Below, in pieces: positions 13,616 through 16,782 of a DNA stretch of 33,909 nucleotides. The notes under the pieces were generated by a model, which saw only the letters and a program-made list of their open reading frames with translations, was not told the DNA's origin and searched no databases. How positions within the stretch are numbered: position 1 is the first letter of the stretch; every line of letters starts with the position of its first letter. Position numbers and translations under genes: made by a program. The DNA is from Promethearchaeota archaeon. GTDB taxonomy: Archaea; Asgardarchaeota; Lokiarchaeia; Sigyniarchaeales; SOKP01. Location of the stretch: NCBI GenBank assembly GCA_048938855.1, contig JBHLLT010000025.1, positions 1-33,909 on the forward strand. Reading direction: 5' to 3'.

Positions 13616-14872
13616 TTATAAATTATCACTTTTTATCCTCGATATCACCGCAAATATTATAATTATTACTCCTAGTACTATAAATGTTAAATTTAAATTC
13701 CACATCACTAGATATCCGACGAGAGGGTAAAGAATTGCTCGTATAAGACTCGCTATCATGTTTATTGCACTTATAACGGTAGCTCTGTTTTCTGTTTTAA
13801 TTTGTTGATTTATGCCCTTAACAAATATCAAACTCCTTGAAAACCCAAAACCAATCACAATGAGAATTAAAGGAATGCTCACTGGAATATATTGGATTAG
13901 CGCCATTAAAATAAAGGCCATACCCGGAATTATTGTATATATTCTAAGGAATCTTCTCTTGTTATAGATTTTGTTTTCTAAAGTTGGAAGGATATTGTTA
14001 AAGAGAATTTGCACCAGTGTCACTGACATACTTACAAATCCAAAGAATATTAATTGAAAATTTAATGCTTCAAGGTAGACTTGATAAGTCCATATTAAGA
14101 AAAACACTAAAGCCTCTGTTATCACCATCTCAACAGCTAGTAATCTTAATATCTTATTGGTTGTGAGCTCTTTAATCCCAGATTTTACAATCGTCAAATA
14201 TTTGTCGTTTTTCTTTTTTTCCAAGTCATGATTAGGCTCCTTTAAAGTTAATGATATTATCGTTGCTAATATAAATGGTACAAATATAAGACTCATTACA
14301 AGATTCAATGAAAAATATGCACCGATGATCGATCCAACTGGTGCTGAAATTGCAATACCAAGCAAGCTAAAACTGCGATTTCGTGCCATAATTTTAGAAA
14401 TTTCGTTTTCTCTTCCAAGTTTTCTCAGTGTGTCATAAATAAATGCCATATTGGTCCCTGATGTTAAAGCAGCTCCTAAAGCCCATAAAGTTTCACCAAT
14501 GGTAAATATGATAATACTTGGATAACTTCCATAAATCAATCCAGCAAATGCCGTTGTCAAAGCTCCTAAAATCAAAGAAAATTTCCTACTTATGTAATCT
14601 GCTATTGCACCGCAAGGAATCTCAAATACCAATATCATAATAGTAAAATAACTTTGTAAGAACATTACCTCTACAAATGTTAATCTACCCCATGTCAAGA
14701 AAAATGGTAAGAGAATTCCTGAGATCAGATGAAATCCCTCAATAAAACTAATCAAATACGATTTCCATATGTTCGCTCTCCAAATCTCTAAATTTTCAGG
14801 AGAGACTTTACTTTCTAACTTTAAGGAAGATTCAACCAATTCTTCTTGAGTTAATTCCTTTAATTCTGACAT
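13616..14872 (-). CDS. MFS transporter
   Basis: FEIPCGAIADYISRK (motif A), SGTNMAFIYD, RATVIS; ~12 TM; SD-like GAGGT at 14884-14880. Confidence 0.92.
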   Translation of the reverse strand: MSELKELTQEELVESSLKLESKVSPENLEIWRANIWKSYLISFIEGFHLISGILLPFFLTWGRLTFVEVMFLQSYFTIMILVFEIPCGAIADYISRKFSLILGALTTAFAGLIYGSYPSIIIFTIGETLWALGAALTSGTNMAFIYDTLRKLGRENEISKIMARNRSFSLLGIAISAPVGSIIGAYFSLNLVMSLIFVPFILATIISLTLKEPNHDLEKKKNDKYLTIVKSGIKELTTNKILRLLAVEMVITEALVFFLIWTYQVYLEALNFQLIFFGFVSMSVTLVQILFNNILPTLENKIYNKRRFLRIYTIIPGMAFILMALIQYIPVSIPLILIVIGFGFSRSLIFVKGINQQIKTENRATVISAINMIASLIRAILYPLVGYLVMWNLNLTFIVLGVIIIIFAVISRIKSDNL

Positions 14873-15072
14873 TTTTTTAACCTCTTTTATTTATTTTCTT
14901 CTAATTTTTATTAAATTCTCAAAAAAACATATTTAGAGTCTCCATTGGGACGCTATTAGTGTCTGAGTGTATTAAATCAATCTTAGAACCCTGGAGTTTT
15001 ACCAAAAATATGAAAACAATTAATGAGAAAAGTTATTGAATGTTATAAAGTAAAAGATAAGTATCGGCGTGC

Positions 15073-15248
15073 TGTTGATTTCTATGTTTTTATGAGGATA
15101 ATGTTGCAGGGAAATATGATACATACCCTAAAAACATCATTACCATGATAATTTTATTACAATACGGATCATGAACTATCCCAGTATCTCGATGAGTTCG
15201 AATCCAATTATTTTCTCTAATTATCATGATACAATCAACAATAATGTT
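15073..15248 (-). ncRNA. Candidate structured cis-regulatory leader RNA upstream of the MFS gene
   Basis: Nested complementary pairs 15073-80/15233-40, 15141-53/15219-31, 15166-80/15191-205 and 15084-92/15129-37; mismatches resolve to G-U on the minus strand. Confidence 0.55.
15090..15227 (-). CDS. Putative 45-aa leader peptide (uORF)
   Basis: ATG(15227)..TAA(15090): MIIRENNWIRTHRDTGIVHDPYCNKIIMVMMFLGYVSYFPATLSS; below the ORF-track cutoff. Confidence 0.45.
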   Translation of the reverse strand: MIIRENNWIRTHRDTGIVHDPYCNKIIMVMMFLGYVSYFPATLSS

Positions 15249-15272
15249 TAATAAAACTATATTATTTTCAAA

Positions 15273-15280
15273 TATATAAA
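15273..15280 (-). promoter_or_regulatory. Putative TATA box for the MFS leader transcript
   Basis: TTTATATA on the minus strand, preceded by an A-run; about 25 nt upstream of where the structured region begins. Confidence 0.5.
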
Positions 15281-15287
15281 TTTTATG

Positions 15288-15348
15288 GGGGATTTCTCAT
15301 CATTCAGAGAAAATTATGTCAAAAATGGGAAAATGATGGGAAATCTCC
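15288..15348. terminator. 17-bp imperfect inverted repeat immediately 3' of the mutase gene
   Basis: ggggatttctcatcatt (15288-15304) / aatgatgggaaatctcc (15332-15348), 15/17 Watson-Crick pairs, 27-nt loop; function inferred only. Confidence 0.45.
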
Positions 15349-15351
15349 TTT

Positions 15352-16782
15352 TTATCTTTTAGAGATAACCAATCTCACAAGTTCAGCTGTTGCTTCACAA
15401 TAAACTCTTGCTAGTGAATCTCTTTTAGCTTCACTTATTACTCTAATAATCGGTTCTGTATTTGAGGGATGAATAAGAACAAACCAATCCTTTCCTCGAC
15501 CAAATCTAAGATCATTTTCTATTTGCTCCACATTTTCCCCTTCATTAATCAATTCTTCTTTGACTTTAATAATAAGAGAACCTGTATCAACATTTTTAAT
15601 GTTGATTTTTATTCTATGCGAATAATATTTTGGTAATTCTGATACTAATTGGGAGATATTCTTTTCGGTTTTTACCATTATCTCAATAATTTTTGCAGCT
15701 GCAAAAATCCCATCTCTTGTATTATTGAAGTAAGGGAACATAATTCCTCCACATGATCCTTCTCCACCAAATACTAATCGATCTTTTGATGAATTTGCTA
15801 AAAGATCATTCATTTTTTCACTTAAAAAACGTTCCCCTACAGGAGTCCGTATAACCTGAGCATTATATTTTTCTGCTATAGCCTCAAATCTTAAAGAGGA
15901 TGCTAAATTAGTAATAAAAACAGTTTGCTCGATATTATCCTCTAGATTTTTTAAATAATAATCCGTAATTAAAGCTAGGCTAATATCCTCGGGATAACAT
16001 TCTCCATTTTCGCTAATGATTGCTAATCTATCAGCATCTGTATCATGAGCAAAACCAATATCATACTTCCCTTGCCACACTTCCATTATTAAGTCTCTTA
16101 GATTTTCCTTTATGGGTTCAATTTCTCTTGGAAAATCTTTATTGGCAAGTATTTCATTATTTATTAATTTAATTTCACATCCCATTTCAGCAAGAATTAT
16201 TGGAGTGACCAGATTTCCTGCTCCTGCTCCCGAATCAATAACTACTCTAAGATTATTTTTTTCTTTAATATTTGGAATATCAATAAAACGCTTTAAATCA
16301 TGAATATAATCTGTAATGGGATTTATATTTTTAATATGTGATTCTGAAATTGTATGGATTTTTTTAAAATCATTCAAATCTATATTCTCTAAATATATAG
16401 AAACAATTTGTAAGTCATTAGTGTTTAAAAATGTCGTTTCAGATATTAATTTTAATCCATTCCATTCTTGAGAGTTGTGAGATCCTGTAATGATAATGCC
16501 AAATGGAATATTCAATTTATTTTTCGCATGAACTATTACAGGTGTAGGGCATATACCAAAATTTATAATTTCAAAACCAGATAAAATTAATCCCTCAATG
16601 ATTGCCTCTTCAATCAAGATTCCACTAGGTCTAGTATCTCTGCCTATTACTATTTTCTTATCCTTTCCATTAATTAATAATCCAAAAGCAATTGCTATTT
16701 TCTTAACAGTATCATATTTCAGATCTTTCTCAATACGACCTCTAATACCACTTAGAGTAAAAATTAAATCAGATTCTTCCAT
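15352..16782 (-). CDS. Alpha-D-phosphohexomutase family protein (PMM/PGM/GlmM-like)
   Basis: SGIRG, GRDTRPSG, TGSHN (phospho-Ser), DTDADR (metal loop), TPVGE, GGEGSCG, PSNTEPIIRV. Confidence 0.93.
   Translation of the reverse strand: MEESDLIFTLSGIRGRIEKDLKYDTVKKIAIAFGLLINGKDKKIVIGRDTRPSGILIEEAIIEGLILSGFEIINFGICPTPVIVHAKNKLNIPFGIIITGSHNSQEWNGLKLISETTFLNTNDLQIVSIYLENIDLNDFKKIHTISESHIKNINPITDYIHDLKRFIDIPNIKEKNNLRVVIDSGAGAGNLVTPIILAEMGCEIKLINNEILANKDFPREIEPIKENLRDLIMEVWQGKYDIGFAHDTDADRLAIISENGECYPEDISLALITDYYLKNLEDNIEQTVFITNLASSLRFEAIAEKYNAQVIRTPVGERFLSEKMNDLLANSSKDRLVFGGEGSCGGIMFPYFNNTRDGIFAAAKIIEIMVKTEKNISQLVSELPKYYSHRIKINIKNVDTGSLIIKVKEELINEGENVEQIENDLRFGRGKDWFVLIHPSNTEPIIRVISEAKRDSLARVYCEATAELVRLVISKR

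Follow-up and report, generated by a model that had tools for sequence, protein, structure and literature searches.

Leader-peptide attenuation is textbook knowledge for bacteria. The amino-acid leader-peptide attenuators trpL, leuL and hisL are examples, and arrest peptides such as TnaC and SecM are known in addition. The bmrB leader, which precedes bmrBCD in Bacillus subtilis, regulates only when it is translated, and the translation rate matters (PMC4191407). In Salmonella mgtL-mgtA, a single-stranded termination signal is either exposed or taken up by pairing, according to the speed of translation (PMC6335274). In Haloferax, upstream ORFs (uORFs) are translated (PMC7261190). Furthermore, FttA binds U-rich nascent RNA, and exclusion between the ribosome and FttA has been proposed, not tested (PMC11616081). 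In the literature searched, we found no published case of leader-peptide attenuation in archaea.

We analyzed a stretch of DNA of 33,909 nucleotides from Promethearchaeota archaeon (contig JBHLLT010000025.1; this whole stretch is called the window). In the window, a phosphomutase gene ("mutase"; 15352-16782, minus strand) and the MFS transporter gene that follows it are separated by an intergene of 479 nt, which contains all helices described below. We propose, with a probability of roughly 0.6, that this leader is a translation-coupled (ribosome-mediated) attenuator of the MFS gene rather than a ligand riboswitch. The features of the locus, from upstream to downstream, are as follows.

15325-15342, minus strand: direct repeat, two copies of TTCCCAT 11 nt apart, upstream of the TATA box; conserved
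15273-15280, minus strand: TATA box; kept in relatives
15233-15249, minus strand: strand 1, the 5′ end of the leader, which by folding and conservation pairs with 15080-15073 (P1) or 14935-14925 (P0)
15141-15231, minus strand: arm A, formed by P2 (15231-19/15153-41) and P3; among 44 homologues, 82% (P2) and 81% (P3) of cells are paired
15090-15227, minus strand: uORF of 45 codons and a stop, without a Shine-Dalgarno sequence; its AUG is buried in P2 and its stop lies in the 3′ strand of P4
15165-15167, minus strand: Pro codon 21 (Pro21), located in the 3′ strand of P3; a ribosome might pause or stall here
15084-15140, minus strand: arm B, which by folding and conservation forms 15140-33/15105-098 (P4a) or 15137-29/15092-84 (P4b)
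15073-15080, minus strand: strand 2, the 3′ strand of P1, 10 nt past the uORF stop; 89% of cells paired
15020-15072, minus strand: spacer, pyrimidine-rich, G-poor and poorly conserved; candidate loading zone for a termination factor
14921-14937, minus strand: strand 3 with the U-tract, which pairs with strand 1 (P0) in relatives; 94% of cells paired
14880-14884, minus strand: GAGGU, a Shine-Dalgarno-like sequence for the MFS gene, preceded by an A-rich stretch
13616-14872, minus strand: MFS transporter of 418 amino acids (PF07690 match); probable regulated gene

The MFS protein weakly resembles HP1165-type and TetA(P) efflux models, far under the cut-off. Relatives of this protein carry the name Promethearchaeota, and our search found no solved or named close relative. 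A MITE or another type of repeat was considered for the leader and rejected because a repeat search gave a single copy in this genome and there is one match per genome. Directly past the mutase stop codon, a 17-bp imperfect inverted repeat (15348-15288, minus strand) overlaps the direct repeat; it is not conserved in relatives.

A sequence-only reading of the window had described 15073-15248 as a switchable, multi-stem RNA. All strands that it named, namely P1, P2, P3, P4, both AACAUUAU copies and the TATA box (15280-15273), are present where it placed them. The minimum free energy structure of the minus strand in this 176-nt core is a three-way junction (-42.1 kcal/mol, z -3.15). None of 200 shuffled controls folded as well, and neither did any of 600 genomic 176-mers of equal G+C content. 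The plus strand of the same 176 nt gave a z value of -2.18. Moreover, when the core was folded in 44 intact homologous leaders, the mean z values were -3.8 for the sense strand and -2.1 for the antisense strand. Thus, an RNA in the sense of the MFS mRNA, as had been expected from the non-Watson-Crick positions, is favored.

The statement that the element belongs to no recognized RNA family was also borne out. At the gathering threshold, no Rfam match was obtained in the window (the best permissive match, E 0.16, is far below the threshold), and a tRNA scan gave no match. SRP RNA (RF01857) and RNase P RNA (RF00373) are encoded on contigs C70 and C20, respectively, and not in the leader. The SRP RNA on C70 scores under the Rfam cut-off.

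A conserved, structured leader tied to the MFS gene was found across relatives. Within the family, a DNA search detected this region in about 30 genomes. When a peptide profile was used, matches were obtained in 47 of 154 genomes of the order, and the profile matched only genera g1 and g12. Because leaders exist in five more genera that the profile missed, its blank in families f2-f4 shows nothing. In the alignment, strand 1 is the most conserved segment, with a column conservation of 0.89. P0 overlaps the 5′ strand of P1, and these helices are therefore mutually exclusive. Paired cells account for 89% of P1, 82% of P2 and 81% of P3, and single changes are mostly of the G-U type; the relatives counted in these figures are kin and not independent.

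In the sequence-only reading, the 5′ strand of P4 was given two competing partners, the copies of AACAUUAU. One of them gives the alternative helix P4a. P4a and P4b are isoenergetic in this genome (-41.8 each when enforced); family-wide, the alternative P4a is better kept than the P4 that had been put first (88% versus 74% of cells paired). The other partner, the 5′ AACAUUAU copy, occurs in this genome only: its place is taken in relatives by AACAUAUU, which has the distal strand 14935-14925 as its conserved partner. The inner stems of arm B are weakly kept, with mean pair probabilities of 0.27 and 0.17. In averaged ensembles, the values were 0.24 for P0 versus 0.47 for P1 and 0.36 for P4a versus 0.18 for P4b. 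Taken together, the helices form two mutually exclusive sets, which overlap the uORF.

Covariation, which had been proposed as a check, was not detected: a blind scan with a tree-simulated null gave no significant pair (best E 0.52). Therefore, the structure rests on folding scores and conserved complementarity. Changes in P0, P1, P2, P3 and P4a lean to pair-keeping on the sense strand. In counts for these five helices, which were picked post hoc and serve as supporting evidence, 126 of 244 changes kept the pair versus about 38% expected; these counts are halved because the directed ones enter each kept change twice. P3b and P4b showed no pair-keeping excess.

The main feature of the region, absent from the sequence-only reading, is an ORF of 45 codons that runs through it, and the region is thus not non-coding. 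The AUG of this uORF is invariant, each of the 44 intact leaders has an open frame of 36-49 codons, and the remaining five reading frames are interrupted. We compared pairs of extant sequences and carried out forward simulation on the tree. Among 485 differences between nearest extant sequences, 15.1 stop-making changes were expected and none was seen (P about 7e-9), and 0 of 1200 tree simulations kept every frame open. In the MFS-linked leaders from g1 and g12, insertions and deletions in the uORF are multiples of 3. These comparative tests show that the reading frame is under selection to stay open.

The substitution pattern of the uORF was of a different kind. The pS and pN values are 0.34 and 0.33, respectively. 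Differences per codon position are 0.37/0.29/0.33, without the third-position excess seen in the neighboring mutase (0.24/0.12/0.45). Because the frame is kept open but pN equals pS, translation of the uORF seems, as judged from these comparisons, to be more important than most of the peptide sequence. The length of the uORFs varies from 24 to 49 codons, with several ending at codon 24-27, and the peptide has no family match. NCBI lists the homologous ORFs as hypothetical proteins.

The sequence-only reading had proposed a candidate attenuator or riboswitch. One rival explanation is a ligand-binding riboswitch in which the ORF is incidental or secondary. The three-way junction, the alternative helices and the transporter downstream suit such an element, as does a conserved unpaired A-rich strand in the loop of arm A. 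However, an open frame under strong selection threads the whole element, and therefore the riboswitch is not the first-choice reading; an incidental frame would have been lost. In addition, the leader is 71% A+U, possesses few invariant unpaired residues, diverges beyond recognition between genera and has no match in Rfam. We consider a riboswitch very unlikely.

The same data bear on two further classes of RNA, a type I toxin-like mRNA and an H/ACA-type guide RNA. The buried AUG and the end-to-end pairing resemble the former, and the C-terminal third of the uORF is hydrophobic in this genome. However, this stretch is not a conserved hydrophobic helix, since several uORFs are polar or short. 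A guide RNA might be suggested by the two arms and by an ACA at the end of P1, but the ACA after arm A is absent in this clade and a guide needs no open frame. The single copy speaks against both classes, and we regard them as extremely unlikely.

Within the attenuator reading, the Pro21 codon deserves attention. Pro21 is present in 63 of 66 leaders from seven genera (50 of 50 from g1 and g12 and 13 of 16 from the others), where the start codons of the distant genera were chosen by eye, three leaders are without Pro21 and one (L096) is without a matching frame. All four Pro codons are used across the leaders. The interval from the AUG to codon 21 is free of insertions and deletions, and the length beyond codon 21 is 3 to 28 codons in the undeleted leaders. 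Among the 66 leaders, only M1, Lys or Asn at position 4, hydrophobic codons 17-18 and Pro21 are kept. Of eight leaders that were read after the Pro21 pattern had been noticed, six possess Pro21 and two do not. In g6, the GG partner of the Pro codon is shifted by 4 nt, and the codon itself is unmoved. These patterns suggest a role of Pro21 in the peptide. Because the Pro21 and Trp8 codons pair together in P3, RNA alone could explain part of their conservation. Overall amino-acid similarity between genera was not above a column-shuffled null (14/150).

Met codons are enriched 3.5-fold in the uORFs from g1 and g12. Sensing of Met was considered and rejected, because these codons are part of helices and because internal Met codons are absent from several distant leaders. 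A conserved run of cognate codons, by which an amino-acid-sensing leader is identified, was not found in the uORFs. Therefore, the leader may sense something other than an amino acid. If this is the case, the leader would in addition hint at what this orphan transporter carries. Separately, a long hairpin on contig C45 (about 43873-43920) contains an ORF of 15 codons, three of which encode Trp.

The limits 15073-15248 proved too narrow, because a further conserved strand with a pairing role is found about 140 nt downstream of P1. This strand 3 has a column conservation of 0.82 and is flanked by segments of 0.53 and 0.59; its U-tract is located about 45 nt before the MFS start. Strand 3 can base-pair with the initial 11 nt of the inferred transcript, and one position alternates between G-C and G-U. 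In three leaders from g12, changes in P0 are matched on both sides, as judged by eye. P0 is imperfect in the present genome, where the stop-codon strand 15092-83 is a better partner for 14931-22. The U-tract pairs with the 5′ end of the leader in g1 and g12 and with the post-stop strand in g11 and g2; in these genera, where it is traceable, the U-tract thus has a pairing partner within the uORF domain. Across homologues, the spacer is composed of U (0.46), C (0.20) and little G (0.07), and its pyrimidine share is 0.66 versus 0.51 +- 0.11 behind other genes. We found no site of the intrinsic terminator type, i.e. a G+C-rich hairpin followed by a U run.

Upstream of the leader, the direct repeat is present in all homologues from g1 and g12 and in most leaders of other genera, and its distance to the TATA box differs by about 10 nt between clades. 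It is probably a transcription-factor site. As a marker of a regulon, it gave 19 loose matches genome-wide and no clear set. From the promoter elements, we infer a transcription start near 15252-15248; the leader, about 380 nt in length, and the MFS gene would then be on one transcript from about 15250. One metatranscriptome run, available as assembled contigs, shared 5% of sequence words; its contigs from a relative span 14967-15162 as well as parts of the MFS gene. No contig from this run bridges the leader and the MFS gene, and DNA contamination of these contigs is possible.

The leader precedes an MFS orthologue in genera g11, g5, g6, g2 and g13. In g5, g6, g2 and g13, the locus has no mutase match. 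The order of repeat, TATA box, strand 1, uORF, spacer and Shine-Dalgarno sequence is repeated in these five further genera. Thus, comparison of the loci shows that the leader remains linked to the MFS gene even when another gene lies upstream. No leader was found away from the MFS locus, save in one genome with masked bases beside it. In two g12 genomes (L084 and L088), this locus has neither the MFS gene nor the 3′ half of the leader, and a uORF stub of 24-27 codons abuts the end of uvrC. Closer paralogues that we examined (about 45% identity, one of them in this genome) have upstream regions that are short or differently built, without such a leader.

In one subclade, a charged gene of 70-90 amino acids with a YNxRY motif lies between the leader and the MFS gene and starts like the MFS N-terminus (L024:1972-2223, L030:1965-2240, L072:2404-2613, L078:2375-2587 and L079:2427-2678, all on the plus strand). 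This gene has no Pfam match above the cut-off, and a search of this genome did not find it. The leader is retained ahead of the small YNxRY gene in three genomes in which the MFS gene is missing from the locus.

Other MFS genes have upstream regions of their own. In the paralogues L057 and L059, a dyad, ATGGCAA ... TTGCCAT, flanks the TATA box and is likely a repressor site. A distant MFS homologue (about 38%) in family f2 (L067, L068 and L106) is preceded by a different conserved leader, which has a UGGA/UCCA hairpin and bears a GUG- or UUG-initiated ORF of about 46-51 codons. In the G+C-rich family f4 (L064, L065 and L066), ORFs of about 33-46 codons, hairpins and inverted CCCAY-like motifs are found before the MFS homologue.

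Retention of the leader in the three genomes without MFS at the locus raises the question of whether it is an independent small gene. Such a gene would give a structured transcript of 180 or 330 nt that acts as a small-protein mRNA or as a trans-acting, dual-function RNA, and the MFS gene would have its own promoter or be merely co-transcribed. The leader's own TATA box and upstream repeat, the U-rich stretches past P1 and P0, the paired 5′ and 3′ ends and the annotation of the ORF as a hypothetical protein are in line with this idea. In contrast, the uORF does not have the codon-position signature of a working protein, its length varies, its peptide has no family match, and the element was found only at the MFS locus apart from the genome with masked bases. 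Furthermore, variation in strand 3 preserves RNA pairs and not a TATA box. An independent gene is, in our judgment, unlikely.

We return to the attenuator, of which two features are observed at this locus: a conserved leader ORF lies upstream of a gene, and mutually exclusive helices overlap this ORF. In the proposed mechanism, the ribosome that translates the uORF would act as the sensor. It would load on the AUG, unwind P2 and P3 and, according to conditions, pause at Pro21 or pass it. The position of the ribosome would decide the pairing among strands 1, 2 and 3, and this pairing would set the exposure of the U-rich spacer and the U-tract to the termination nuclease FttA/aCPSF1. When translation is smooth, the U-tract would be exposed and transcription would end before the MFS gene. 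When translation is slowed or blocked, the U-tract would be paired and transcription would read through into the MFS gene. This polarity, by which impaired translation would switch the transporter on, is favored solely by analogy with bacterial mgtL and bmrB. The signal might be the transported small molecule or a general translation stress. Within the attenuator reading, termination is somewhat favored as the output, and the chance of a peptide-dependent stall at Pro21 is about even. A more specific form, in which the uORF encodes an arrest peptide that senses a small molecule or stress, and a stall at Pro21 refolds the leader and masks or exposes the U-tract to FttA/aCPSF1, is possible but doubtful.

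Folding with the 5′ end and the uORF blocked lowered the pairing of the U-tract from 0.57 to 0.40. In this genome, the same block left it unchanged (0.44 versus 0.46). The mean U-tract pairing was likewise unchanged by the modeled position of the ribosome (0.74, 0.73, 0.76 and 0.73). Thus, the modeled ribosomes support a switch weakly, and a clean switch was not seen. FttA/aCPSF1 is present in 25 of 31 genomes tested. Searches for the full-length protein (TIGR03675, PF17214) did not find it in this assembly, which is 97% complete, nor in 4 of 18 genomes of the genus; these absences are probably assembly gaps.

These equilibrium models without a clean terminator switch, together with the missing intrinsic-type hairpin and the mostly unconstrained peptide, would be expected if the uORF acts post-transcriptionally or constitutively. 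In that case, the uORF would escort the ribosome, or its translation would set the stability of the mRNA or the initiation at the MFS gene, and there would be no conditional termination. However, this idea leaves the competing helix sets and the fixed position of Pro21 unexplained. Moreover, no conserved helix covers the MFS Shine-Dalgarno sequence or the A-rich stretch around it. We think this explanation quite unlikely and retain the translation-coupled attenuator. Because it naturally combines a uORF, competing helices and a U-tract, this leader is a ready substrate with which ribosome/FttA exclusion can be tested, and the 66 leader sequences are available for a new RNA model.

Among the known systems, the trpL, leuL and hisL leaders are similar in that a uORF is embedded in competing helices ahead of the regulated gene, but the Asgard uORF has no run of cognate codons. 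An attenuator of the trpL or bmrB type, which uses an intrinsic terminator, does not describe this leader, in which no terminator site was found. Like bmrB, the Asgard leader has a small ORF just upstream of a transporter and alternative stem-loops within the ORF; bmrB differs in its intrinsic terminator and in its ABC transporter. The mgtL leader shares an ORF with Pro codons ahead of a transporter. However, mgtL acts through Rho and is a shorter ORF (codons are listed to position 17) that contains three Pro codons, whereas the Asgard uORF has one Pro, at codon 21. The Bordetella CruR (DUF2946) uORF (PMC9426467) is similar in its conserved Pro, which is followed by a C-over-G region before a transporter. 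In contrast to CruR, the Asgard uORF has neither an RAPP nor a CXXC motif; its conservation is limited to M1, codons 17-18 and P21, and arrest is a candidate property. The leader is thus conserved, is undescribed in the sources searched and lies outside every family tested, and it is built like a leader-peptide attenuator.
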